27,662 nt of DNA from an uncultured Candidatus Saccharibacteria bacterium (lineage in GTDB: Bacteria > Patescibacteriota > Dojkabacteria > SC72), in NCBI GenBank assembly GCA_964500025.1, contig CAZCMQ010000003.1, positions 1 to 27,662 of the forward strand, written 5' to 3'. Below the pieces are notes generated by a model. That model saw nothing but the letters and a program-made list of their open reading frames with translations. It was not told the DNA's origin and searched no databases. This document shows, one piece after another, positions 3,615-22,685 of the stretch; the stretch's first letter is position 1; each line of letters starts with the position of its first letter. The translations under genes and the position numbers were made by a program.

Positions 3615-4358
3615 CTAAAGGTATGCTGAAATGGCTGTAAATTTCTTGGTTAAAGTTATCTCCGGAATCTCTGGGTGACTTTTAGATAAACTATTGATTA
3701 TTGCATAGGTTATTAACCTCACTGTATATATAGTATTTTGTATCTCCTCTTCTGTTATGAAAATCTCTTGTCCTTGCTTTATATCTCTGACCGTTTGTTT
3801 ATTTGTGATGTCGACCGTTTTCTCTTCAGTCAAGTTTAGTATTGATGTTTTGACTTCTTGTCCATCAATCATCCCCTGTATTGAGATTAAAATAAGTTTT
3901 AAATCCCTTCGTGCAGAAGAAGCCCTGTGCCGAATATCATTCCTTATGAAAACTAGTTGTTGGCTTGTTGATTTTATTTCATCATCAAAATCGCAGATTT
4001 TATTAAGCAACTTGGTACTATTCTTTATTCCTCTGGCCTCCACCAGAGCTCCTTCATATTCAAGATTGTTTTGTGCAAGACTCGTTTTTAGTGCGAGTAA
4101 CTCCTGCAGAGTTTCTTCAAAGGAATCAATGATGCTCTTGAATGTATTATTGATTTGAGTTTTCCTATCAACATTACTTGTATTAGGTTGCAAGGGTATG
4201 TAGTCTACGACTTCTTTATGTGTTATCGCATTACTAGATAATGACCTAACCAAGGCATTGTGATATGTATCTAAGCTAGTTTCTAGTTTAGACACCACTT
4301 CAATTGTTTTTGTCTGATAATCCATAGCTTTGGAAAAGTTTTCTAAATGGCGGGACAT
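3615..4358 (-). CDS. hypothetical helical protein with an RNxxxH (HEPN-like) motif
   Basis: 247 aa. FIRNDIRHR (R139-N-x3-H144) lies in a predicted helical region. The ORF is flanked by a ~25-bp imperfect direct repeat (3588-3606 and 4359-4380). Confidence 0.45.
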   Translation of the reverse strand: MSRHLENFSKAMDYQTKTIEVVSKLETSLDTYHNALVRSLSSNAITHKEVVDYIPLQPNTSNVDRKTQINNTFKSIIDSFEETLQELLALKTSLAQNNLEYEGALVEARGIKNSTKLLNKICDFDDEIKSTSQQLVFIRNDIRHRASSARRDLKLILISIQGMIDGQEVKTSILNLTEEKTVDITNKQTVRDIKQGQEIFITEEEIQNTIYTVRLITYAIINSLSKSHPEIPEITLTKKFTAISAYL

Positions 4359-4499
4359 ACGAGTCTGGGACCTAATATCCCAAGTGAATTATACAGAAAA
4401 TTAGATAAAAGAGACAGTATAAAAGAGGGAGGAGTATCTTTCTTATGCCATAAATCTGCGTAATGTTAGATCCTCATCACAGCTTTAACGACCAAGATT

Positions 4500-5228
4500 C
4501 TATTTTTCAGGGTAGTCTTTCTGTATCTGGGCTTTTAACCTGTTATTCTCATCCTGCAAGGCGAGTAGATCTTTCTCAAAGGTTTCAATAAATTCTATAG
4601 ATCCTATATCTTTGTCCACTTCATAAAGGAGATTCGTTACTCCTAATATTATATTAGACGCTTGCCATAATGCTGTTTTAACATGGAACTCGTTCTCATA
4701 ATCAGGAAAAGGCATGTGTGCGACCTTTTTTTCGAGTTTAAAATTTCTATGTGCCTCTACAAGGTTTGAATGAGAAGAATTCTCGTTAATTGCGTCTTTC
4801 ATCCTTTTGATTGCATCTGAACCATGGCTAAAGTTATCTGAGAGCCATTGATATTGCTTTTTCCTAAGTTCTTGCGTGGACTTTATTATCCCGGTTTCAT
4901 CTTCTACTACGAAGCCTTCCTTGTCAGGATTGGCAATTGCATATGCAGCACTAGCTGAGGCTTCTAGGACCTGTCTGAGATTCATCATCGCTTGCGTATT
5001 TTGAAGGCGTAATATCGAAAGGACTGCAAGCAAGTGGTGCTTTCTTATCTGTCCCAAGAATGCCATAAATATAAATCTTGAGACATCAACACTGACAATA
5101 AACTGTTGTAGGAAGTTGTAGAAACCAATCGCATGTTGGTAGTGTTCACCGTAACGCTTTTGTGCATCAAGCACCATTAATCTCTCGCTCTCAACGATAT
5201 TTTCAAAAGTATCATCTTTGTACTGCAT
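4500..5228 (-). CDS. hypothetical helical protein
   Basis: 242-aa ORF, co-directional. No assignable motif. Possibly resembles Abi-associated helical domains, but I could not verify that. Confidence 0.45.
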   Translation of the reverse strand: MQYKDDTFENIVESERLMVLDAQKRYGEHYQHAIGFYNFLQQFIVSVDVSRFIFMAFLGQIRKHHLLAVLSILRLQNTQAMMNLRQVLEASASAAYAIANPDKEGFVVEDETGIIKSTQELRKKQYQWLSDNFSHGSDAIKRMKDAINENSSHSNLVEAHRNFKLEKKVAHMPFPDYENEFHVKTALWQASNIILGVTNLLYEVDKDIGSIEFIETFEKDLLALQDENNRLKAQIQKDYPEK

Positions 5229-5939: not shown

Positions 5940-6827
5940 ATGCTCTCCCAGATATTTAGAAACAAAAAGAATATAGAACTCTTCAACCACACCCTAATCC
6001 TCACAGATGAACAGCTGAACATAACAAAAGTTGAGGTAGGAACGGGTAAAATTCTAAAAGACCTTCAAGGAAACTTCATTGACTCAGTCTCAAACGGTTT
6101 CAAAAATAAACTCAAATATGAGATAGATCGGCTTGGACCAAGAAGACTGTGCATATCACTTGATATACAGTTAGATACAAACATGGGCATGATGCCATTT
6201 AAGCTAATCATCACAAGAAACAATGAGGGACTGCAAATAATTGCGGTTGAAATGACTGAAGCACTACGAATGAAAGAAGAAACCGAAGACCTTTACTATC
6301 TAGCATTTTTTGACCCCCTGACAGAACTTCTCAACAGACGAGGCTACTACCTCATGGCAATCAACCTCATTCAAAGGGCTGCAAGAGATGGGCATGGAGT
6401 CGGAGTCTTGCATATAGATATGGATGCACTAAAACAGATTAATACAGACGAAGGACATAAAGGAGGGGATAGCGCAATCAAAGAGTTAGCTGAAATTGTG
6501 CGTAGGGCAACAAGAAAAACAGACGTTTTGTCAAGGTTTGGAGGTGATGAGTTTGTAATATCTTTTGAAGTAGATCCCAAAAAAGATTTCACAATTGAAG
6601 ACATGTCTGAAAGACTACTTAGATACTCAAGAGCAAATAAAGGACACAGAAGCACACTCTCTATTGGAGCTCACTTGATTAAAGCAGGCAGAGTAAAGGA
6701 GATGGATGAATCTAAAGATATTCAGAAAGAATTGGAGTACGAAGTATCAGTAGCTGACAAATATGGAAGACTTGCCAAGAAACTGGGCAAAGATAGATAT
6801 ATCACAAAAAAGATATATAAACCCTAG
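5940..6827 (+). CDS. GGDEF-domain diguanylate cyclase with an uncharacterised ~130-aa N-terminal domain
   Basis: Contains DPLTELLNRRGY, the intact active-site RFGGDEFVI, and an RxxD I-site (RKTD) 5 residues upstream of GGDEF. Confidence 0.85.
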   Translation: MLSQIFRNKKNIELFNHTLILTDEQLNITKVEVGTGKILKDLQGNFIDSVSNGFKNKLKYEIDRLGPRRLCISLDIQLDTNMGMMPFKLIITRNNEGLQIIAVEMTEALRMKEETEDLYYLAFFDPLTELLNRRGYYLMAINLIQRAARDGHGVGVLHIDMDALKQINTDEGHKGGDSAIKELAEIVRRATRKTDVLSRFGGDEFVISFEVDPKKDFTIEDMSERLLRYSRANKGHRSTLSIGAHLIKAGRVKEMDESKDIQKELEYEVSVADKYGRLAKKLGKDRYITKKIYKP

Positions 6828-6829
6828 GA

Positions 6830-7168
6830 TTATGCTGAGTGCTTAGTTAAAGCATTCTCATAAACACCCTTTGGCTGTACACCAATGAATGTTTCAACTA
6901 ATCCCCCGTCTTTAAACAGTAATACAGTTGGAATACTCATAACCTGATATTTCTGTGTCGTCTCAGGATTCTCATCGACATTAAGTTTCTTCATCTCAAA
7001 TTTTCCAGCGTTTTCGTGGTAAAGCTCGTGCAAAATAGGTTCAAGCATATGACATGGCTGACACCATACGGCCCATAAATCCACTAAAACTAAACCCTTT
7101 GAATTTAACACCTCACTCTCAAACTGAGAGTCAGTAATATCGAAATCATGACTATGACCGTTATGCAT
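6830..7168 (-). CDS. trxA: thioredoxin
   Basis: WCQPC active site (LVDLWAVWCQPCHML) and the thioredoxin-fold pattern throughout. The start is taken at the internal Met (MHNGHSHDFDITD...). The 50 upstream codons of the 6830..7318 track ORF have no homology and would overlap the divergent TsaC start. Confidence 0.85.
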   Translation of the reverse strand: MHNGHSHDFDITDSQFESEVLNSKGLVLVDLWAVWCQPCHMLEPILHELYHENAGKFEMKKLNVDENPETTQKYQVMSIPTVLLFKDGGLVETFIGVQPKGVYENALTKHSA

Positions 7169-7214
7169 TGTATTAGTGGTATAATTTATATGTTTTAGTA
7201 TAGCACAGCCGTCA

Positions 7215-8321
7215 ATGCCCAAGATAGTAAAACTAGAAAAAAACAACTTAGAGCAAGTATTAAACGAAGCCGTTGAGGTAATTAGAAACGGTGGACTTGT
7301 CGTATATCCATCTGACACGTGCTATGGAATCGCAACAGATGCAACTAATCAAGATGCCGTAGACAGATTGAAAAAATATAAACAATTTAGGGGGCAAAAG
7401 CCAATCTCAGTAAATGTTGCATCAAAAGAAATGGCTTCTGAATATGTAAAAATAAATGAGACAGCACAAAACCTGTATGACAACTACATACCAGGTCCGA
7501 TTACAATAATCTCTGAAAGCCTCGGTAAACTAGCAAATGGGGTCCAATCAGACTGGGGAACAGTAGGAGTAAGAATCCCAGACCATGAGGTTCCAGTTAA
7601 GCTTGCTCAAAAATTTGGAAAGCCGGTAACTGCAACATCTGCAAATGTTTCGTACAAAAGCCTCCCATACAGCATAGAGTCATTATTTAAATACACGCCT
7701 AAGAAAAGTTTGGAACTAATTGATCTAATAATAGATGCAGGAGAACTCCCTAAGAATGTCCCTTCTACTGTTTTGGACACCACCATGAACTCCCTCCAAC
7801 TCTTGCGAGAAGGCAAAATGGAATTTGAAGACGCTGTTAAAAAGTCCAACCTCTACAAAACTGTCACAACACAAACTGCACAGGAAACAATTGAATTTGG
7901 AAAAGAAATAGCACAGTACTTTGCTTCAAAGCATGACAATGGCTCACTCGTTTTTGCATTAAGTGGTGAGCTTGGAGCAGGAAAAACCCAGTTTACCAAA
8001 GGAATTGGAGAGCACCTTTCAGTAGAAGATATGGTTAACTCCCCAACCTACACCATTATCAACGAGTACCGATACAATGACGGAGAGAACGAGAGAACAC
8101 TTGCCCACATGGATACATGGAGAATTGCTGATGTGGAAGAATTCAAAAGATCTGGATTAAAAGAATACTTGGAATCAAGTGATATTGTTGTAATTGAATG
8201 GGCTGACAAATTCTTCCATGAGATTGAAGAGATTGTAAAAGAGTTTGGTGGAGTATTAGTCAAAATTAATTTTAAGTATCTCTCTGAAACAGAAAGGGAG
8301 ATTTCAGTATATGAGTCATAG
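7215..8321 (+). CDS. tsaC-tsaE: fusion of TsaC/YrdC/Sua5-like threonylcarbamoyl-AMP synthase domain (N-term) with TsaE/YjeE P-loop ATPase domain (C-term)
   Basis: N-terminus: GGLVVYPSDTCYGIATDA ... VGVRIPDH (YrdC fold). C-terminus: ALSGELGAGKTQFTKGI ... SPTYTIINEY ... HMDTWRI (TsaE Walker A and SPT motifs). Confidence 0.85.
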   Translation: MPKIVKLEKNNLEQVLNEAVEVIRNGGLVVYPSDTCYGIATDATNQDAVDRLKKYKQFRGQKPISVNVASKEMASEYVKINETAQNLYDNYIPGPITIISESLGKLANGVQSDWGTVGVRIPDHEVPVKLAQKFGKPVTATSANVSYKSLPYSIESLFKYTPKKSLELIDLIIDAGELPKNVPSTVLDTTMNSLQLLREGKMEFEDAVKKSNLYKTVTTQTAQETIEFGKEIAQYFASKHDNGSLVFALSGELGAGKTQFTKGIGEHLSVEDMVNSPTYTIINEYRYNDGENERTLAHMDTWRIADVEEFKRSGLKEYLESSDIVVIEWADKFFHEIEEIVKEFGGVLVKINFKYLSETEREISVYES

Positions 8322-9369
8322 AATACTAGCTGTAGATACAAGTTGTGATGAAACATCCGTTGCGGTTGTAGATGGTCGAAGGGTTCTTTCAAGTGTGCGC
8401 TCTTCCCAGGTAGATCTGCACAGCGAGTGGGGTGGTGTTGTCCCAATGATTTCAAAACGAGCTCATGAGGAGAATATCCAAGGCGTATATGAAGAGGCAT
8501 TGAGTAAAGCTAAGCTCACAATACAAGATATTGATTACCTTGCTGTTACATACGGCCCAGGACTTGCAATTGATTTGGAAGTTGGGATTGAGTTTGTAAA
8601 GGAATTGGCTAAGAAATATGATAAGAAAGTAGTTGCAATAAATCATATGGAAGGACACCTCCTTTCCTCCCTAGTTCTTAATTCAAAAGGAAACGGACTG
8701 ATCTCCGATGAAAAGCTTCCTGAAATATTTCCGGCTCTTGCCCTTCTCGCTTCCGGAAAACATACCGAAATTGTTCATGTAGAAAAGATCGGAAAGTATA
8801 GAAAGTTGGGTCAGACTTTAGACGATGCTGCAGGTGAGGCTTTTGACAAGGTTGGTAGAATGTTGGACTTTGGATATCCCGGTGGTCCTGTTGTTTCAGA
8901 GTTTGCCAAAAAGGGTAAAAGGGGAATTATTGAACTTCCAATTCCTATGGCTAAATCAGGAGACCTGAATTTCAGCTATTCCGGATTAAAAACAGCTTGT
9001 TTGTACAAGATTAAGGAATTGAAAGAGTCAGGTGTTCCTCAAAAAGAGTGGATCTATGATTTCTGTAGAAGTTTTGTGGATGTTCTCACTGAGTCATTGA
9101 AGATTAAGCTGTCTAAGGCTATTGAGATGAATTCGGATATTAAGAGTGTATTAGTTGGTGGTGGAGTTTTTGGAAGTGAGTATATTTTAAGAGAGGTTGG
9201 ACAGGTAGTTAAGTCATATGGATTGGAGTATCTGTATCCTGAGAAGGAGTATAGGACGGATAATGCTGCTATGATTGGTATTGCAGCACATTTTAATATT
9301 CTTGAGGGAAATGTTTTGAGTGAGGAAGAGTTGGAAGGATTGGATAGGGACCCGAGACTGAGTCTTTAG
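8311..9369 (+). CDS. tsaD: tRNA N6-adenosine threonylcarbamoyltransferase TsaD (Kae1/Qri7/YgjD family)
   Basis: ILAVDTSCDETSVAVV N-terminus and the HMEGH metal-binding motif (AINHMEGHLLSS). There is an 11-nt overlap with the upstream gene (ATGAGTCATAG), suggesting translational coupling. Confidence 0.9.
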   Translation: MSHRILAVDTSCDETSVAVVDGRRVLSSVRSSQVDLHSEWGGVVPMISKRAHEENIQGVYEEALSKAKLTIQDIDYLAVTYGPGLAIDLEVGIEFVKELAKKYDKKVVAINHMEGHLLSSLVLNSKGNGLISDEKLPEIFPALALLASGKHTEIVHVEKIGKYRKLGQTLDDAAGEAFDKVGRMLDFGYPGGPVVSEFAKKGKRGIIELPIPMAKSGDLNFSYSGLKTACLYKIKELKESGVPQKEWIYDFCRSFVDVLTESLKIKLSKAIEMNSDIKSVLVGGGVFGSEYILREVGQVVKSYGLEYLYPEKEYRTDNAAMIGIAAHFNILEGNVLSEEELEGLDRDPRLSL

Positions 9370-10242: not shown

Positions 10243-11691
10243 GTGATAGAATATACTATGAGTGGTATCCCAAGAAATTTTGAATCCGAAAGTAGTGAAT
10301 CACAACCCTTATCTGCATTGTCTGTTTTTGATGGTCGCTACAGCGAGGATACAAAAGAATTAACTCCATATCTTTCCGAAGCCGCATTAATTGATAAGAG
10401 AATTTTTGTTGAATTAATGTATTTAATGAAACTCTCCAGAGAAGGGATTGTTAGAGAGTTTTCAGATGAGGAAACCAATTATATTTCCACAATAATTGAT
10501 GAAGATCCCTTGTCGAAAGCTATTGCCATTAAGGGGCATGAGAAGATTGTTAAGCATGATGTAAAAGCTGTTGAACTTTTTTTAAGAGATAAATTCGAAG
10601 GTACATCACTTCAGGATCAGACCGAAAATATTCATTACTGTTTAACATCAGAGGATGTAAACAATCTCGCTTATCGTCTGATGTTTAAAGAGTCTTTAGA
10701 ACAGGTCTTTATGCCAGATTTCGAAAAAGTGATTGTTTCTCTATTGAGTTTTGCTAATGAGAATAGATCAATAGTTATTATGGGTAGAACACATGGGCAA
10801 GATGCTGTGCCAACAACTTTTGGTAAAGAAATTGCCGTTTATGCTGATAGATTATTAAAAAAATATGAGCAGCTCTCAAGACTTAGGTTAACCGGGAAGC
10901 TAAATGGTGCGGTAGGTTCCTGGAACTCTTTCTACTTTGCGCACCCTGAGTCAGATTGGATTAGAATTTCAAAAGAATTTGTGGAGAGTCTTGGTCTGGA
11001 GTTTAATCCGGTAACAACTCAGATCAATCCATATGACGATGTTGTTGAAATGCTTTCAAAGTTCCATAATATTAATGGAATTCTTCTAGACCTGGATCAG
11101 GATATGTGGCGCTACATTAGTGATGGATGGCTCAAACAAAAGAATGCAGAAAATCAAGTGGGTTCTTCTACAATGCCTCAGAAGGTCAATCCAATTAATT
11201 TCGAAAACAGTGAAGGTAATTTACAGATAGCTAATGGAAGCATTGAGGCACTTCAGAGAACCTTACCTATCTCAAGATTGCAGCGAGATCTGTCAAACAG
11301 TACTTTAGTTCGCAATGTTTCTCACATATTTGGCTACGAACATTTGGCGATGGCTGGAATTTTAAAAGGAATGTCAAAGGTATTTGTTGATCAGCAAAAA
11401 GTAGCCTCGTACTTGAATGAAAATTGGTCAAATCTTGCAGAACCGTTACAGACTTTGCTTCGTAAAAGTGGATTCTCAGATGCATATGAAGATGTCAGAA
11501 AAAAGGTTATGGGTAGGTCACTAAGTCGAGAGGAGTGGACTTCACTGGTTACAGAATTGGCAGTAGATGGTCATGTTAAAGAGGAGTTGTTAGGATTAGA
11601 TTTCTCTCGGTATATTGGCATTAGTGAAGGTATTGTTGATCTTGTCTCTAAAAAAGCGACTACTTTACTTCACTCCAACAGGGATAGCTAA
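10243..11691 (+). CDS. purB: adenylosuccinate lyase
   Basis: Fumarate-lyase signature GSSTMPQKVNPINFENSEGN. It can be aligned with E. coli PurB throughout (HDVKAVE, CLTSEDVNN, GRTHGQDAVP). Confidence 0.9.
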   Translation: MIEYTMSGIPRNFESESSESQPLSALSVFDGRYSEDTKELTPYLSEAALIDKRIFVELMYLMKLSREGIVREFSDEETNYISTIIDEDPLSKAIAIKGHEKIVKHDVKAVELFLRDKFEGTSLQDQTENIHYCLTSEDVNNLAYRLMFKESLEQVFMPDFEKVIVSLLSFANENRSIVIMGRTHGQDAVPTTFGKEIAVYADRLLKKYEQLSRLRLTGKLNGAVGSWNSFYFAHPESDWIRISKEFVESLGLEFNPVTTQINPYDDVVEMLSKFHNINGILLDLDQDMWRYISDGWLKQKNAENQVGSSTMPQKVNPINFENSEGNLQIANGSIEALQRTLPISRLQRDLSNSTLVRNVSHIFGYEHLAMAGILKGMSKVFVDQQKVASYLNENWSNLAEPLQTLLRKSGFSDAYEDVRKKVMGRSLSREEWTSLVTELAVDGHVKEELLGLDFSRYIGISEGIVDLVSKKATTLLHSNRDS

Positions 11692-11733
11692 TAGCACTTG
11701 CATGACATCCCCTTTGTGATATTATGAGGGTAT

Positions 11734-13224
11734 ATGGATGGAGTCACCGGCAGAATAATGGACTCGAAAGAAGTCCTAAAATTGTATCGTGATACAGTTA
11801 AAAACTCTCCACCTCTCACCAAACTTAAAAGCAGTATAAAAAATCCCGGAGGCTCATATCGCCCCAATACCATTTCTGTAGAAGACGTATATTTTGGAGA
11901 TTCTGGAAAAGGATCTGTTGTTGCAAAATACAACAATATTCTTGCTAAAGATATGAAGCTGGTTTCACTCCGCTTTAATGGAGGGGCTAACGCGGGTCAC
12001 GAGACTATGTTTAATGGAAAACTTGTTGTTACTCATCAACTCCCAACTGCAGTCGCAGCACCTGGTGCTGTTGCAATAATTAGTAGGGGAATGTTAATCC
12101 ACCCTGAAGATCTTCTTGTCGAAATAAATGAAGTAAAAGAAGTTTTCTCTGGCATCCTTCCAGGGCAACTACTAATAGACGAAAGAGTCACCCTTGCACT
12201 TGATACACACAGGGCATTTGAAGGCGTGTTAAATGGTATAACCACAGGAGGAAGAGGATCCACCGGTCGAGGAATCGCAACGGGTTACTCAAGTCACTAC
12301 GAGAGATTCCCTGTTATTCTAAAAGACCTGCTTTCCCATAGATGGGAAGATATTTTTAGAGCACACTACAGAATATATGAGAAGCTAGTCCTCGGATCTT
12401 CAAACTCCCTTCCACTTTCTGAAATTGAAGTTCTAACCTATTCAAAAAACAAGGGTGAGAAAAGAAAGGTAGGAGACGAAGATACCTTTATATCGAGATT
12501 AAAACTCGCTCGTTCAGAAATTAGGCGTTACAGGGTTGATAACATGCACGACGTTATCAAGCAGGCTTGGCAGGATACAAAAGTAGCTGTAACTATTGAG
12601 GGCGCACAAGGAGCTGGTCTTGATCCGTATCATGGTGTCTATCCCGATGTAACATCCAGTAGACCAATGTCGCGCTTTATGAATGATGCTACATACAACA
12701 TCATTCTTCCTGAAGATATTCTTTTTAGAGTAGCTGTCATGAAAACAACATACATGTCCAGTGTAGGCAGAAGAGTTCTTCCTGATATGCCAGATGAGGA
12801 GAAGATAAAATGGATACAAAGTGCTTTTGATGAAAGGGGAAGAACCTCTGGAAGGTTAAGAGATATATATCCTGTTTCCATACCTATTGCCCAATATCTA
12901 AGAAGGGCGGCTGGTTATACATGTATTGCCGCAACGCACCTTGATGCTTCAAAAGTTGATTCCGATATTGAAGTTGTTACTCACTACACGAAAAAAGATT
13001 CTGGTGAAGAGGGACCATACCTTCCTTATCAAGATATCCTTGATGAATTTGATCCAAACTTTGTAAAATTTAGCGGTTGGGATGGTGAGGAAGTAAAAAC
13101 TATTCATAACCCTAAGAATTTGCCTTTGGAAGCTCTGCAGTATCTTCACTTCTTGGACAAAACAATTGCCCCTGTTGTTATGGCAACAACAGGCCCAGAT
13201 TTAGAGGACTATATTCTCTGGTAG
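11734..13224 (+). CDS. purA: adenylosuccinate synthetase, divergent, with a ~45-aa N-terminal extension
   Basis: YFGDSGKGSVVAKY (P-loop, GDEGKGK-like) and NGGANAGHE (GGxNAGHT). 496 aa compared with roughly 430 in typical PurA. Confidence 0.8.
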   Translation: MDGVTGRIMDSKEVLKLYRDTVKNSPPLTKLKSSIKNPGGSYRPNTISVEDVYFGDSGKGSVVAKYNNILAKDMKLVSLRFNGGANAGHETMFNGKLVVTHQLPTAVAAPGAVAIISRGMLIHPEDLLVEINEVKEVFSGILPGQLLIDERVTLALDTHRAFEGVLNGITTGGRGSTGRGIATGYSSHYERFPVILKDLLSHRWEDIFRAHYRIYEKLVLGSSNSLPLSEIEVLTYSKNKGEKRKVGDEDTFISRLKLARSEIRRYRVDNMHDVIKQAWQDTKVAVTIEGAQGAGLDPYHGVYPDVTSSRPMSRFMNDATYNIILPEDILFRVAVMKTTYMSSVGRRVLPDMPDEEKIKWIQSAFDERGRTSGRLRDIYPVSIPIAQYLRRAAGYTCIAATHLDASKVDSDIEVVTHYTKKDSGEEGPYLPYQDILDEFDPNFVKFSGWDGEEVKTIHNPKNLPLEALQYLHFLDKTIAPVVMATTGPDLEDYILW

Positions 13225-13279
13225 CTTGTCTTTTATTTTCTGCTGCACTATTATTTATAGTTAAGTTAGGGATACAAAC

Positions 13280-15547
13280 ATGGCTCGAAACTTATATTCT
13301 CAAGAACCGGTAGTTATAAACTCAGTATATAAAGATACTCAGTCTTCTCCTACAAAAAAGTATCTTGAAATAGCAACTACTAATGAGAATAAGTTGAAGG
13401 AAATTCGCAGGATTCTGAAGGATTTCGAGATAATTGGAAAGTCTCTAGATATAGAGGAGATACAATCATTAAATTGGTCAAGGGTTGCCTCCGCTAAGGC
13501 AAAAGCAGCATATGAAGCAAATGGGTATAATCCTATTTTAGTAGAAGACACCTCGCTTGAAGTAAAAGGTCTTGATGGCTTCCCTGGAACTTATGTTAAT
13601 GATTTCTTCTCAACCGCTTCTATGAGAAAGGAGGTTGCCCAAAATTGGCTTAATGGAAAAGATAGATCCGCAATTGCTAAAGTAACCCTTGCCATCTTTG
13701 ACGGTAAAGAAGCTTTCATTTTTGAGGGAAATTGCGAAGGTAAAATTTCCGAAACTCCTATGGGTATGAATGGCTTTGGATGGGATGACATCTTTATCCC
13801 AAATGGTCAGCCAAAGGGTGAAAAGAAAACATTTGCACAGATGAATTCTGAGCAAAAGGATAAGTATTCGATGAGAGTGAATGCTTTAAAGAAATTTCTT
13901 AAGAGTCCTCCAGTTTTGAACTACAAAGTTTTTAAACTTCTTGAACCTTTTGACCAAGAGATGCAACGAGTTAGACTAAAGGAATTGAAGGATGAGACAG
14001 CTATTAAGTTCGCGTATACTCTCGAAGCGATCGAGGGTGATAATGAAGCGAATAATCTTTTAACTGCTCCTAACTATTCTGAAGTTTACTTAGAAGAGAA
14101 TGCCTATTTTTCTAGATTTTTGCAAAAGAAAAATAGTAAAAGCATAGGATTAATGCTGACTGATACTGATCGTACACACATAAAGTTGCAGAAAAATGGT
14201 TATCCAGTCCTTTGGCAAATGGGTCCAGAGAGAAGGCACCTTGCCTTGGCAGAAAGGGTTGAATATTTTACTGAAAATCAGAGTAAAGATGCTCATAAGA
14301 TATTGGATGAATTGGAAAATAAAAAAGAAAGTTTCCCAAAGAGGTCTAATAAGAGATCTATTACTATAGATAGATCTTTAGGGTTTGTCGGTGGAGATGT
14401 TGTAACTCGTGCTTCTGCAGTAAAGGAAATTGGTTATAAGAAATTTGCATCAGAAAAAGAAGTGAGCAGAACGAAGGCTTCAAAATCTGGGCTTTTCAAT
14501 ATAATTGGGAAGTATGCAAGAAGTATTTATTCAATTGGTTGTCTTCCTTGGGTTTCTGGTTGGAGAGATGTGATTATTACCGGTGCAGTCGGCCATATGC
14601 CTGTTTTTGTACACAGGAATAATCTCAATGCGATTGATCTTCAGAATCAAATTGATCTGATTAACGATGCGAAAAAAGCTATAAAAAGTTTAGGTCTTTC
14701 AAAAAAAGCTCTTGAGAGGGCGTATAATAATATCGGTGCGGCGGTAGGTACAAATCCTGTCGAGGATAGGAAAAAAGCTAGGAGGCTATATGATGAAGCA
14801 GGTGTGAAATTATTTAGGATATACACAATAAACTCGGATCCTAGGGTTGTTCAAACAGCACGAGCAATTAGAGAAGAACTAGGGGAAGATGTAGAGATAT
14901 TTGTTGGTCAGTTAGTTGATAAAAGACAGGCGTATGAATTAATTGTTGATGATATTAAGATTGACGGTTTGATTATTGGTCACGGTGGTGGAAGAGTCTG
15001 TACATCTGCAACGAATGGCATGGCACTTAGCACACTTGAAGAAATTTATTCGATCGTTACTGATAGTGCATTTAATAATACTAGTGTACTTGTTGAGGGT
15101 GGTTTAGGTAGTCATATTGGAAGTTCACTTATTATGGGAGTTGATGGCATATTGCGCAATGGACAATTTGCAAGCTGTGTTATTGAGCAGGGTGACCTAT
15201 TTTTTGAACATATGAATGGAAAGCCTTGTCAGCCATACCATGGTAGCGCAAGTGCTGCAACTATGATTATTGAGTCATACAATCCTGAGAATGCTAAGGG
15301 ACGATTATTTGCTAGTGGAAGGGCTAAAAATGTAGAAGGTAAGCCTGGCTACATTTATTATGAGGAAAAGGGTAACTCAATGTCGTTCTATGTAAATGAA
15401 TTCAAACACTATGCGGCGAGGACTCTTGCAGATTTAGGTGTTGAAAGTATCTGGGAATTGAGAGAGTTTGTAGCAAATACAGATGAAGAGATATTTAGAG
15501 AGGTTACGCCAGAAGCATCAGTTGTTTCAGGAGCTTGGAGGAACTAG
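13280..15547 (+). CDS. multidomain protein: N-terminal Ham1/RdgB-type non-canonical purine NTP pyrophosphatase (ITPase) domain, an uncharacterised middle region, and a C-terminal IMPDH/GMP-reductase-like TIM barrel with catalytic Cys loop
   Basis: N-terminus: ATTNENKLKE ... VEDTSLEV ... GFPGTYVNDF (ITPase motifs). C-terminus: IGHGGGRVCTSATNGMAL (compare IMPDH VGIGPGSICTTR) ... VLVEGGLGSHIGSSLIMGVDG (compare IADGGI..SGDI.KA.A.GA). 755 aa. Confidence 0.7.
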   Translation: MARNLYSQEPVVINSVYKDTQSSPTKKYLEIATTNENKLKEIRRILKDFEIIGKSLDIEEIQSLNWSRVASAKAKAAYEANGYNPILVEDTSLEVKGLDGFPGTYVNDFFSTASMRKEVAQNWLNGKDRSAIAKVTLAIFDGKEAFIFEGNCEGKISETPMGMNGFGWDDIFIPNGQPKGEKKTFAQMNSEQKDKYSMRVNALKKFLKSPPVLNYKVFKLLEPFDQEMQRVRLKELKDETAIKFAYTLEAIEGDNEANNLLTAPNYSEVYLEENAYFSRFLQKKNSKSIGLMLTDTDRTHIKLQKNGYPVLWQMGPERRHLALAERVEYFTENQSKDAHKILDELENKKESFPKRSNKRSITIDRSLGFVGGDVVTRASAVKEIGYKKFASEKEVSRTKASKSGLFNIIGKYARSIYSIGCLPWVSGWRDVIITGAVGHMPVFVHRNNLNAIDLQNQIDLINDAKKAIKSLGLSKKALERAYNNIGAAVGTNPVEDRKKARRLYDEAGVKLFRIYTINSDPRVVQTARAIREELGEDVEIFVGQLVDKRQAYELIVDDIKIDGLIIGHGGGRVCTSATNGMALSTLEEIYSIVTDSAFNNTSVLVEGGLGSHIGSSLIMGVDGILRNGQFASCVIEQGDLFFEHMNGKPCQPYHGSASAATMIIESYNPENAKGRLFASGRAKNVEGKPGYIYYEEKGNSMSFYVNEFKHYAARTLADLGVESIWELREFVANTDEEIFREVTPEASVVSGAWRN

Positions 15548-15604
15548 TAGACAAATTTCCAGAAATTCTATATTATCCTCTAGAATAATATTGCCGGTTT
15601 TAAG

Positions 15605-15877
15605 ATGACAGAAAGCCAGCCGAAGCCAGATCAGAATGGCGTACCAGATACAGAGGCATACAAAGTTGAAATAGAGGCTTTTGTTAATGCATTCATAAAT
15701 TCTCCCGAAGAACTAGAGCTAAGGTCATCTGCTGATTTCTCTTTTTTGAGCAATATCAATAACTATACTATACCTGGGATAATAAGTGAGATAAATTTTT
15801 CATATCCTGATCTTCTGTCTGATGAGATGATAGACTTGAACTCAGAACTGTTCCTGCCCTTGACGAGAATGTGCTAA
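15605..15877 (+). CDS. hypothetical small acidic protein
   Basis: 90-aa ORF. Overlaps the next ORF by 7 nt in a different frame. Confidence 0.3.
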   Translation: MTESQPKPDQNGVPDTEAYKVEIEAFVNAFINSPEELELRSSADFSFLSNINNYTIPGIISEINFSYPDLLSDEMIDLNSELFLPLTRMC

Positions 15878-16260
15878 CTGCCAGAGTAGCAACAATCTAT
15901 AGAATCCTTCATATCCTACAACCAATGTGCGCTGTGCGTAGAGAGATTTTAAGTGATTCAGAATGGTCAGACACAGAAGAAGCTCATCATCTTATAAGTA
16001 AAGTTTTGAATTATACAATTACGCAGATTTGTAGTCTGATTACTTTTGACGGATCAAGGGATATTGTTACATATAAAGGAAAGAAGATGTTGTTTGACCA
16101 ATACTTACAAGAAAATTGTATAGCCACAGTAAACCCAGAATACAAGGTATCTGTCATTGAGATGAGTGAAATATTAGCGCGTCTTCAAGATTACTTCATG
16201 GGTGATCCTCCAGACTCATTTGCCGATAGATATCTGGTTGAGGACGATGATGAAGAATAA
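15871..16260 (+). CDS. hypothetical acidic protein (GTG start in the ORF track; an internal Met is also possible)
   Basis: 129-aa ORF ending in EDDDEE. Could be the downstream half of a frameshifted single gene together with 15605..15877. Confidence 0.3.
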   Translation: MLTARVATIYRILHILQPMCAVRREILSDSEWSDTEEAHHLISKVLNYTITQICSLITFDGSRDIVTYKGKKMLFDQYLQENCIATVNPEYKVSVIEMSEILARLQDYFMGDPPDSFADRYLVEDDDEE

Positions 16261-18495: not shown

Positions 18496-18939
18496 ATGCC
18501 AGGTGTAGAAACAATTTTGACGTTTAAAGCAGTTATTCTCCATAAATTGAAGATTCTCTTGGTTAAAAGGTCTGGCGAGGGTTATTTTGCACCAGATAAG
18601 TGGGAGTTTCCTGGCGGAAAGCTTAAGGTAGGAGAGAGGGTTGAAGATGTTTTAGAGAAGGAGGTTTTTGAAGAAACTGGTTTAACTGTTTCACTTCTGA
18701 GCAAGTTAGGATATATGCAAACTGAAACTGCCGATAATCCCAAGTATAAAGGATTACCTGTGATTAGAGTCTATATGCTAGCAAAGTCCGAATCAGATCG
18801 AGTTAAGCTTAGTAAGGAGCATACAGACAGTAAGTGGGTTTTACTTTCAGAAGCATATCAATACGATTTGAGTGATCAGACTAGAAAAGCATTGCAGATT
18901 TTGGAGGAGGGTGTAAAGACACAGTTATGGAGGCAGTAG
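18496..18939 (+). CDS. NUDIX hydrolase
   Basis: Nudix box GGKLKVGERVEDVLEKEVFEETGL (Gx5Ex7REUxEExGU). An extended -10 (TGTGATATAAT, 18480-18490) lies 5 nt upstream of the ATG. Confidence 0.85.
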   Translation: MPGVETILTFKAVILHKLKILLVKRSGEGYFAPDKWEFPGGKLKVGERVEDVLEKEVFEETGLTVSLLSKLGYMQTETADNPKYKGLPVIRVYMLAKSESDRVKLSKEHTDSKWVLLSEAYQYDLSDQTRKALQILEEGVKTQLWRQ

Positions 18940-21152: not shown

Positions 21153-22685
21153 ATGCAAGAGCAATATCTAAGTCTTGGTAACAAGGATGTCCTAAACGGA
21201 CAATACCTGCTAGCCGTATTCAAAATAGTACCTTATGGTGATGAATCAATAGAAAGTGCTGCAACCGAAGCAGCTGCAGAATCTTCTACTGGATCAAACC
21301 TAAAAGTTTCTTCAGCAACAAACTACTCAATGAATATTGATGCGCTTGTATATGATATAGATAAAGAGAGGAGCCTTGTCTATATAGCATACCCATGGAT
21401 TATGTTTGATAGAGGTGGGAATATTCAAAACATCCTTACCTTCCTTGCTGGAAATGTTTTTGGAATGAGTAACCTTAAAGAGTGTAAGCTTCTTGATGTT
21501 TGGTTCCCACCACAGATGCTTGTGCAGTACGATGGACCAAGTTACACCCTCGATGACATGAGAAGATATCTTGATGTATACGACAGACCAATTCTAGGAA
21601 CAATCATTAAACCTAAAATCGGACTAACTTCAACAGAGTATGCTGAACTTTGCTACGATTTCTGGGTTGGAGGCGGTGATTTTGTAAAAAATGACGAACC
21701 TCAGGCTGATCAGTTCTTTTCTCCATTTGAAAAAATGGTTGATAGTGTAAGAGAGGCAATGGACAAAGCCGAAAAAGAAACAGGACGAACTAAGGTTCAC
21801 TCATTTAATGTTTCTGCAGCAGACTTGGAAACTATGGTTAGGAGAGCAAGGTATGTTGTGCAGACAATGAAGCCTGGTAGTGCATCTCTTTTAATTGATG
21901 GAATCACTGCAGGTTGGAGTGCTGTACAGACACTGAGAAGAAATTTCCCTAATACCTTTATTCACTTCCACAGGGCAGGGCATGGTGGATTTACAAGAAA
22001 AGAAAACCCAATAGGATATACAGTTCCCGTAATGACGAAGTTTGCCAGACTTGCCGGTGCATCGGGTGTGCATACTGGTACAGCGGGTGTTGGAAAAATG
22101 TCAGGAGATGCCCATGAGGATATCACAGCAGCACATCAGGCCCTTAGATTCTGTGCAGATGGATGGTATTTTAGGCAAGTATGGTCAGAAGTTCCATCAA
22201 GAGACACAAATATTCAGGAAATGATTTCTAAAGAGAAAAAAGTTTGGGAGATGGGTGCTAGAGAACTTGCTAAAATGAGAAGGACTAAAGCTCTTAGTGC
22301 AGAGGGGCTTGAAGAACATACTAACTGGAGAGTAATTCCAAAAATGTCTCCAATTGTTTCTGGTGGGATCAACCCAGTATTACTTCCAGAGTTCTTAGAT
22401 GTAATGAAATCAATTGACTTTATAATTACAATGGGTGCTGGGGTTCACTCACACCCAATGGGAACTACTTCTGGTGTGAAAGCAGTTTTACAAGCGTATG
22501 AGGCATGGTTGGAAAACGTACCACTTGAGGAGTTTGCACGTGATAAAGAGGAATTGAGAGTTGCGGTTGAATTTTACAACAAGTACGGAACTCAAGCTCA
22601 TAAAATGAAAAGTGATAGTTCTCAGGTAGAAAATCAAAACACTAGTGGTGAGGTTACTTCACCAATTGAAGATCCTACGCTTTAG
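21153..22685 (+). CDS. rbcL: ribulose-1,5-bisphosphate carboxylase/oxygenase large subunit, form II/III-like (as described in CPR bacteria and archaea)
   Basis: Alignable with RbcL throughout: AAESSTGS, GNVFG, IIKPKIGLTSTEY (K175/K177), GGGDFVKNDE (K201 carbamate site plus D/E Mg ligands), HFHRAGH (H294), HTGTAGVGKMSGD (K334), PIVSGGINP (S379-G-G), MGAGVHSHPMGT (G403/G404). It has a ~25-aa insertion before the SGG loop and a ~30-aa C-terminal tail. Confidence 0.9.
   Translation: MQEQYLSLGNKDVLNGQYLLAVFKIVPYGDESIESAATEAAAESSTGSNLKVSSATNYSMNIDALVYDIDKERSLVYIAYPWIMFDRGGNIQNILTFLAGNVFGMSNLKECKLLDVWFPPQMLVQYDGPSYTLDDMRRYLDVYDRPILGTIIKPKIGLTSTEYAELCYDFWVGGGDFVKNDEPQADQFFSPFEKMVDSVREAMDKAEKETGRTKVHSFNVSAADLETMVRRARYVVQTMKPGSASLLIDGITAGWSAVQTLRRNFPNTFIHFHRAGHGGFTRKENPIGYTVPVMTKFARLAGASGVHTGTAGVGKMSGDAHEDITAAHQALRFCADGWYFRQVWSEVPSRDTNIQEMISKEKKVWEMGARELAKMRRTKALSAEGLEEHTNWRVIPKMSPIVSGGINPVLLPEFLDVMKSIDFIITMGAGVHSHPMGTTSGVKAVLQAYEAWLENVPLEEFARDKEELRVAVEFYNKYGTQAHKMKSDSSQVENQNTSGEVTSPIEDPTL

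Follow-up and report, generated by a model that had tools for sequence, protein, structure and literature searches.

IMP dehydrogenase (IMPDH) and GMP reductase (GMPR) are a textbook pair, in which one barrel carries out two reactions. Cys319, Thr321 and Glu431 are ancestral and needed in IMPDH and GMPR alike, with the Thr present in all IMPDHs and GMPRs; only IMPDH has the Arg418-Tyr419 dyad, carried on a long flap, and GMPR has a truncated flap without the dyad (PMC2525682). Mycobacterial GuaB1 resembles IMPDH and yet is a GMPR, and cyanobacterial GuaB3, a CBS-less and divergent protein, nevertheless serves as an essential IMPDH. Among the Ham1 pyrophosphatases, the defensive HAM1s are reported to carry His invariably at the position of the catalytic Asp, to show no pyrophosphatase activity and to be always paired with the SIR2 protein KomC (bioRxiv 10.1101/2024.12.20.629578). 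Here we describe a gene that joins these two worlds, located in a stretch of 27,662 nucleotides (contig CAZCMQ010000003.1 of an uncultured Candidatus Saccharibacteria bacterium), the whole of which is called the window below. The gene, denoted X like its family members at other loci, encodes a Ham1/ITPase domain fused to a barrel of the IMPDH/GMPR superfamily. The barrel subfamily and the architecture are new in that superfamily; the ITPase to which the barrel is joined is ordinary, and the sequences are already public. The fusion gene and its parts are as follows.

13280..15547, + strand: fusion gene, Ham1 plus family-specific extension plus IMPDH/GMPR-superfamily barrel; complete open reading frame (ORF) with an ATG start, 755 aa plus stop
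13370..13903, + strand: Ham1/ITPase domain, aa 31-208; Pfam Ham1p_like (PF01725), E 1.1e-42
13907..14419, + strand: family-specific extension, aa ~210-380; beta-rich part, helical hairpin and linker, with no known fold
14420..15544, + strand: IMPDH/GMPR-superfamily (beta/alpha)8 barrel, aa ~381-755, from alignments with E. coli GuaB, GuaC and two IMPDHs of the Candidate Phyla Radiation (CPR)
14978..15013, + strand: catalytic Cys loop, G567-H-G-G-G-R-V-C574-T-S576-A-T; family consensus GHGGGRQCTSA
15236..15349, + strand: base-binding motif Y653-H-G-S-A-S658 and flap; Y653, G655 and S658 invariant

The gene encodes a real, conserved two-enzyme protein. In a search space of 5.8 billion protein sequences, more than 120 clusters of proteins of ~750 aa aligned over 100% of the query with 43-64% identity, and an exhaustive profile search yielded 259 representatives at E<1e-30. 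Of 96 loci, 83 had the Ham1, middle and barrel segments in colinear order on a single strand, and the fusion was present on closed, long-read chromosomes of 3-5 Mb, which hold many of the Anaerolineae copies. The region joining Ham1 to the barrel was itself conserved across the family. The AF2 model of the whole fusion protein had a pLDDT of 88 and a pTM of 0.84, and the GC content of the gene (37.7%) was that of its surroundings (37.9% for the window). Those results confirmed the proposal of an earlier, sequence-only reading of this DNA that a 755-aa polypeptide joins Ham1 to a Cys-containing IMPDH/GMPR-superfamily barrel, both domains having Pfam matches; the motifs quoted in that reading, GHGGGRVCTSAT and VEGGLGS...GVDG, were both found in the protein, and its call for other Ham1-plus-IMPDH proteins in the databases was answered by the full-length clusters.

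The same reading had raised the alternative that two genes were fused by error. An assembly or sequencing artefact, or a pseudogene joining two genes, might be thought of because split arrangements do exist, Ham1-less genes being found in Woesebacteria, Levybacteria and Roizmanbacteria. In three Woesebacteria, a standalone Ham1 gene lies in divergent orientation 100-350 nt upstream of a Ham1-less gene for the middle region and barrel, and its product is 43-48% identical to the fused Ham1 domain. As these Ham1 and barrel genes are on opposite strands, a frameshift cannot explain the fusion. Together with an unbroken ORF that over 100 independent assemblies match colinearly from end to end, this leaves the artefact with hardly any probability, and we rejected it. 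The adjacency of the two genes in Woesebacteria instead represents the fusion in split form and is the best evidence that both activities work together; it supports, independently of the fused genes, that Ham1 and the barrel module are functionally linked.

The family is rare. A scan of ~185,000 genomes, one per species, showed relatives in 119 of them. Most carriers are Anaerolineae (Phototrophicaceae and Aggregatilineales), and the CPR carriers are Dojkabacteria, WWE3, Woesebacteria and metagenome-assembled genomes labelled Saccharibacteria. No family member was found on viral contigs. Entries in public databases bear partial or generic names ('IMP dehydrogenase', 'XTP/dITP diphosphohydrolase' or 'hypothetical'), each of which is at best half right for the fusion protein. 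The sequence-only reading knew of no description of this architecture, and our literature search likewise found no published account of it or of the barrel subfamily.

We examined the conservation of individual residues in a family alignment of 36 sequences. The Ham1 domain has the catalytic set T33, N35, K38, E60, K73, E89-D90, F166-G-W168-D169-D170, K193 and S197-M198-R199, in which K38, E60, K73, E89, F166, D170, K193 and R199 are invariant columns. The catalytic position 90 is occupied by Asp in 27 sequences and by Glu in nine (P0025, P0027, P0044, P0046, P0056, P0060, P0070, P0091 and P0098), and by His in none. The Glu90 members with a source label or a named locus are from Chloroflexi/Anaerolineae and the labelled CPR members keep Asp, a lineage-specific change. 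The domain scored 131 bits with the NCBIfam RdgB/HAM1 model, slightly below the equivalog cutoff of 145 bits. From its conserved catalytic residues, we predict that the Ham1 domain is an active-type non-canonical purine NTP pyrophosphatase.

The PDB matches of the Ham1 domain were Mj0226, PH1917, human ITPA and KomB, the best of them by sequence being KomB (E 1e-21 for the sequence alone and 5e-35 with a profile). X might thus be conceived as an anti-phage sensor-effector, in which a KomB-like HAM1 would sense dITP/ITP and switch on a barrel effector that consumes NAD or nucleotides. KomB and the Ham1 domain also share an SMR motif instead of SHR, and the gene is often solitary. However, KomB barely outscored the housekeeping archaeal and eukaryotic ITPases, and it reads VEH where the fusion protein reads VED; the family has Asp or Glu and not the His of the defensive clade. 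No SIR2 gene was present in any annotated neighborhood of family members, and PADLOC gave no match, although the version used (2023) is older than Kongming. The gene is absent from the viral contigs searched, copies in independent CPR lineages lie within nucleotide-metabolism operons, and a common synteny surrounds the gene in ~40 Anaerolineae genomes, indicating vertical inheritance. We consider a defensive function very improbable. A Kongming-type system was rejected on the grounds of the catalytic residue and of the SIR2 partner missing from the annotated neighborhoods.

The Pfam IMPDH match (PF00478) covers aa 454-729 (E 1.3e-15), but the barrel is longer. The alignments place the cap strands of its N terminus near aa 381-419, β1 at PWVSGWRDV (aa 423-431), the HRN motif at aa 445-447 and β3 at IGAAVG (aa 485-490), and hence the barrel spans approximately aa 380-755. 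The sequence-only reading had left some 300 residues (aa 200-500) between the domains unassigned; since the barrel begins near aa 380, the unassigned part shrinks to aa ~210-380. This conserved extension of ~170 aa is part of the barrel module rather than a linker and always accompanies the barrel. Its invariant residues include E222, P223, E227, R279, S288, G290, T294, D297, G315 and R326. As reported in the sequence-only reading, there is no CBS pair: a helical hairpin of 38 residues, a length kept in 35 of the 36 sequences, occupies the insertion site from HRN447 to IGAAVG485. A CBS (Bateman) pair after β2 is typical of IMPDH but not universal. Because CBS-less true IMPDHs exist, its absence does not exclude membership in the IMPDHs.

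The covalent core of the superfamily is conserved in the barrel. The Cys loop aligns with the GIGPGS(I/V)CTTR loop of IMPDH/GMPR; G567, H568, G569, G571, C574, S576 and A577 are invariant in all 36 sequences, and the intervening residues are nearly so. E606, G607 and G608 are also invariant, as is the GG phosphate loop. C574, S576 and E686 correspond to Cys319, Thr321 and Glu431 of IMPDH, the latter two to Thr188 and Glu289 of GMPR. Ser576 in place of Thr is a conservative change, but it deviates from all IMPDHs and GMPRs. The flap, from G655 to G690, is fixed at 36 residues, with R681 and E686-G687 invariant near its end; that of E. coli GuaC has ~21. An R[YFW] pair sought in the flap was present in none of the 36 members. 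HMMER places R675-L676 at the position of the Arg-Tyr dyad, with Arg in 30 of 36 sequences and Tyr in none, while MAFFT shifts that position by four residues (671-672); the alignment of the flap is thus ambiguous, and an Arg-Tyr pair appears under neither. The C-terminal ESHxH segment is missing from the barrel.

X scored 43.8 bits with the IMPDH model TIGR01302, whose cutoff is 481.5, and the curated models for GMPR (TIGR01305, TIGR01306 and NF052358) gave no match at E<=1; those for GuaB1 and GuaB3 (TIGR01304) gave none either. The profile of the barrel scored CBS-less CPR IMPDHs at 40-41 bits, E. coli GuaB at 15 and GuaC at 7. Its sequence matches in PDB and NCBIfam were IMPDHs, with GMPR limited to a marginal match to Lmo0132, whereas by fold comparison IMPDH and GMPR structures were nearly equidistant from it. 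As mycobacterial GuaB1 demonstrates that similarity is undiagnostic, we did not use it to assign the barrel to either enzyme. On the question of IMPDH versus GMPR posed by the sequence-only reading, membership in the superfamily stood, but the barrel could be assigned to neither, the defining residues of each being missing. Judged by its sequence, the barrel satisfies the definition of neither IMPDH nor GMPR and is best described as a new subfamily.

A distant barrel homologue, P0176, was noted at two loci (L096/L097, 3640-5457, + strand). It is 605 aa long, with a GNGGGxxCKT loop and another N terminus, and its neighbors are carbamoyltransferase, DegT aminotransferase, epimerase and radical-SAM genes. 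The neighborhoods of P0153 and P0176 are unrelated to nucleotides. The gene content around P0176 suggests a branch recruited to sugar or nucleoside natural-product chemistry.

We then considered the genomic context of X, a neighborhood being defined as ±10 kb around the gene. In the window, two genes for purine biosynthesis directly precede it.

10243..11691, + strand: purB-like adenylosuccinate lyase, upstream of the fusion gene; Pfam Lyase_1 and ASL_C
11734..13224, + strand: purA-like adenylosuccinate synthetase; Pfam Adenylsucc_synt, E 1.8e-59; stops 55 nt before the fusion gene

The three genes are on one strand, separated by gaps of 42 and 55 nt. No terminator-like site was found in the 55 nt that follow purA, where a weak promoter-like site is present at 13226-13254; co-transcription of purA and the fusion gene is possible. 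The sequence-only reading was right about the two genes directly upstream on the same strand, but the IMP-centered operon that it proposed is not a conserved one. In tblastn searches over ~95 other loci, PurA and PurB were found in the window only, and we discarded the idea of a conserved purB-purA-X operon. At 496 aa, and with ~50 extra residues at the N terminus, the PurA-like protein is long; its E value for Adenylsucc_synt, just 1.8e-59, suggests a divergent adenylosuccinate synthetase.

Other nucleotide genes accompany X elsewhere. At one locus (L085), the genes for adenosine deaminase (add), guaB, guaA, X and SHMT (glyA) are all on one strand. The IMPDH encoded there scored 408 bits with TIGR01302 and has the dyad, as ERYG, and the GuaA scored 659 bits. 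Since a true IMPDH shares the operon with X, X is not simply the IMPDH of the cell. In Levybacteria (L008/L009), the order is dcd, dNK/tmk, dut, thyA, folA, X and glyA, and two small genes of the 23S_rRNA_IVP family (4134-4514 and 7039-7401, + strand) are located inside that operon. In a Roizmanbacteria locus (L010), a distant homologue is flanked by genes for Ham1, a phosphoribosyltransferase, guaA, an IMPDH-type protein and add. That IMPDH-type protein (11320-12483, − strand) is CBS-less and scored 400 bits with TIGR01302; it has an insertion of ~17 residues before YRGMGS, and MAFFT shows D-E at the position of the Arg-Tyr dyad. Genomes of the WWE3 type have gyrA, rnhB and X, as confirmed by Pfam in L068, with RNase HII also identified in L072; the sizes of the upstream genes in L074, L075 and L078 resemble this pattern.

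The closest relative of the window protein (64% identical, locus L012) is directly preceded by an abutting RuBisCO gene (3-374, − strand), orthologous to that of the window and 87% identical. In the Dojkabacteria orthologue (L002), NUDIX, Pyr_excise, SRAP and Y-family polymerase genes lie within a few kb; the NUDIX hydrolase gene is at 7700-8206 (− strand), ~2 kb upstream. A neighborhood of nucleotide-pool and DNA-sanitation genes may thus recur in L002 and the window. In ~40 Anaerolineae genomes, the gene occurs in a conserved synteny without nucleotide genes, and an unbiased clustering of neighbors revealed no family-wide partner, only the synteny of the Anaerolineae lineage (ADH and ABC permeases).

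We tentatively favor a reading in which X is a bifunctional enzyme for recycling and sanitizing purine nucleotides, combines an active ITPase with an active, Cys-dependent purine nucleoside monophosphate (NMP) barrel of a new subfamily and works in nucleotide metabolism. Our stated confidence in it stays a little below even, a conservative grade that also reflects the weak support for the direction of the reaction; our working view of the general statement was that it is fairly likely. The Ham1 domain would turn (d)ITP/XTP into (d)IMP/XMP and pyrophosphate. The extension and the CBS-less barrel would bind a purine NMP, and Cys574 would attack its C2 to form a thioimidate of the E-XMP* type, with the ancestral-type residues Ser576 and Glu686 relaying protons in place of the Arg-Tyr dyad. 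The barrel would then interconvert IMP, XMP and GMP fed by Ham1, and deaminated purines would return to the A and G pools; in the window it would supply PurA/PurB for the conversion of IMP to AMP, and elsewhere it would operate beside GuaB/GuaA. That the barrel would work on the monophosphate pool fed by Ham1 is weakly supported. The channeling of deaminated nucleotides back into the pool, imagined already in the sequence-only reading, is hypothetical but plausible. Of the two classical options, we lean slightly to a GMPR-like reductive deamination that yields IMP rather than to a second IMPDH, since the operon of X in L085 already encodes a true IMPDH and since the purA/purB genes of the window fit such a logic. 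Taken by itself, a GMPR-like chemistry is possible but doubtful, and a non-catalytic barrel is distinctly unlikely.

A number of observations weigh against this reading. In two independent alignments, the β4-end Asp of IMPDH/GMPR (human D274), which binds the nicotinamide ribose of NAD in IMPDH, corresponds to the invariant Tyr515, and the barrel family has lost the CTTR Arg; both changes make the use of NAD(P) uncertain. The ribose Asp is replaced by the invariant Glu606, the phosphate Ser by Arg572 and the GS pair by Asn627-Gln/Gly; something other than plain IMP or GMP may be the substrate. The roles given here to the NAD, ribose and phosphate positions are those of the corresponding positions in IMPDH structures. 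The long, untruncated flap of 36 residues, the length found in IMPDH, speaks against a simple GMPR. Moreover, with a GMPR-like barrel the two domains would yield IMP in parallel and not in sequence, an unusual rationale for a fusion. Finally, the gene is solitary, with no nucleotide-metabolism neighbors, in roughly 60 Anaerolineae and several CPR loci.

In a rival reading, the barrel would be a divergent but genuine IMPDH, acting sequentially from ITP to IMP to XMP and sending purines toward GMP, with water activated by Ser576/Glu686, perhaps aided by Arg675 or Arg681 of the flap. Enzyme fusions usually follow the logic of sequential reactions, the sequence matches of the barrel point to IMPDHs, its top-scoring relatives being the CBS-less CPR forms, and the flap has an IMPDH-like length, with Arg in most sequences at the HMMER-aligned position of Arg418. 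The cyanobacterial GuaB3 illustrates that a CBS-less, divergent protein may be an essential IMPDH. Furthermore, the loss of the Tyr costs only ~20-fold in T. foetus IMPDH, and Thr321/Glu431 alone can activate water (PMC2525682). Nevertheless, the complete lack of an Arg-Tyr pair in the flap, the replacement of the β4 Asp, the losses of the CTTR Arg and of the ESHxH segment, and a TIGR01302 score of 44 bits against a cutoff of 481 argue otherwise, as do the dyad-bearing IMPDH in the L085 operon and, in L010, the IMPDH-type protein that adjoins the distant homologue. We regard this possibility as rather unlikely.

A reaction that is neither that of IMPDH nor that of GMPR, with the extension adding a new substrate or cofactor site, would account for the remodeled subsites, in which H568, R572, Y515, R513, R522, D547, E606 and N627 are invariant while the covalent core is kept. 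It might be, for example, a cofactor-independent hydrolytic deamination of GMP to XMP via E-XMP*, an ATP-independent amination of IMP to GMP, or the processing of purine monophosphates, deoxy or with a damaged base, that Ham1 releases. In line with this idea, an extension without known fold is constantly joined to the barrel, the curated IMPDH, GMPR, GuaB1 and GuaB3 models gave nothing beyond a weak IMPDH match, and several contexts relate to dNTPs, thymidylate or DNA maintenance (thyA-folA-X-glyA, gyrA-rnhB-X and the L002 neighbors). However, the idea is purely inferential, as none of our results points to a specific alternative reaction, and GuaB1 of mycobacteria and GuaB3 of cyanobacteria show that divergent residues can suit classical chemistry. 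Such a reaction is conceivable, with less than even chances in our judgment. The broader proposal, that the middle region and barrel form a new functional class specific to CPR and Anaerolineae, with a so far undescribed reaction, in which the Cys-C2 covalent chemistry is kept, the cofactor and sugar-phosphate sites are rebuilt, an extension of novel fold is added and an ITPase is coupled for two-step purine sanitation or recycling, is speculative and on the whole improbable, though far from negligible.

Several other features of the window were noted. Downstream of the fusion gene, a promoter-like site (10/12) at 15548-15576 precedes two small overlapping ORFs, 15605-15877 (+ strand, 90 aa) and 15871-16260 (+ strand, 129 aa), neither of which has a Pfam match. 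A NUDIX hydrolase gene is located at 18496-18939 (+ strand), ~3 kb 3′ of the fusion gene, and a homologue of the RuBisCO large subunit (510 aa) is encoded at 21153-22685 (+ strand), its Pfam catalytic domain being matched in two stretches. Such a homologue typically belongs to the nucleoside/AMP-salvage pathway of the CPR. The window also contains an enolase gene, and the set formed by RuBisCO, enolase and NUDIX fits a salvage-dependent CPR genome. Further upstream, a single ORF at 7215-8321 (+ strand) comprises Sua5/YciO/YrdC (TsaC-type) and TsaE domains and is followed, with an overlap of 11 nt, by the TsaD gene (8311-9369, + strand); judging by these domains, the two would be a compact operon for t6A-tRNA modification with an unusual TsaC-TsaE fusion. 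A protein with a GGDEF diguanylate-cyclase domain is encoded at 5940-6827 (+ strand), in an apparently small CPR genome.

A third, widely conserved subfamily, with the covalent core, rewired subsites and no dyad, represents a natural test of what decides the outcome of the reaction in this superfamily. The routes of purine interconversion are incompletely mapped in CPR bacteria, which rely on salvaged nucleotides. An enzyme that is joined to an ITPase or encoded beside one, and that occurs in purA/purB, guaB/guaA and thyA/folA/glyA operons, is likely to close a gap in the purine maps of the CPR. Its restriction to the CPR and Anaerolineae is an unusual phyletic pattern.

Compared with known systems, X resembles KomB, the dITP sensor of Kongming (8zsg, 9v0g), in its SMR motif and short archaeal-type Ham1 architecture, but the KomB clade has His, is inactive and has SIR2 KomC as its partner, whereas X has Asp or Glu, no SIR2 was seen with it and its contexts are metabolic. 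With the housekeeping Ham1/ITPA/RdgB proteins (Mj0226, PH1917 and human ITPA) it shares the catalytic Asp and every residue that binds phosphate, Mg or the base; it differs from them by SMR in place of SHR, by its fusion to a second enzyme module, by a score under the family cutoff (131 versus 145 bits) and, in Anaerolineae members, by Glu at the catalytic Asp. Like GuaB3 and the IMPDH-related orphans (TIGR01304; 8p4q from Synechocystis and 2qr6 from Corynebacterium), it is a CBS-less, divergent paralogue of the IMPDH family, and in Actinobacteria GuaB3 adjoins a true guaB, as X does in L085. Unlike in mycobacterial GuaB3, whose loop is unconserved, the Cys loop of X is invariant, and GuaB3 has neither Ham1 nor the extension; X was not matched by the TIGR01304 model, and 8p4q and 2qr6 were not its closest structures.

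With GMPR (GuaC types 1 and 2 and actinobacterial GuaB1), X has in common the Cys/Thr(Ser)/Glu triad and the absence of the Arg-Tyr dyad, and the operon logic of the window, from GMP to IMP to AMP with PurA/PurB, fits. In contrast with GMPR, its flap is 36 residues long instead of ~21 as in E. coli GuaC, no GMPR model or structure matched it significantly, Lmo0132 being marginal, and its cofactor, ribose and phosphate positions carry the same substitutions as against IMPDH. The best matches of the barrel in sequence and fold are the IMPDHs (GuaB; TIGR01302; 2cu0, 1lrt and 4xtd), especially the CBS-less bacterial and CPR forms. They share with X the (beta/alpha)8 barrel, the cap strands, the G-x-G-x-G-x-x-C-T-(T/S) loop, the GG loop, Y-x-G-x-x-S, the E-G pair after the flap and a flap of similar length. 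In contrast with IMPDH, X is devoid of the Arg-Tyr dyad, the β4 Asp, the CTTR Arg and ESHxH, and has Glu606, Arg572 and N-Q/G as substitutions; it also carries an extension of ~170 aa and an N-terminal Ham1 domain, and a single operon encodes both X and a true IMPDH.

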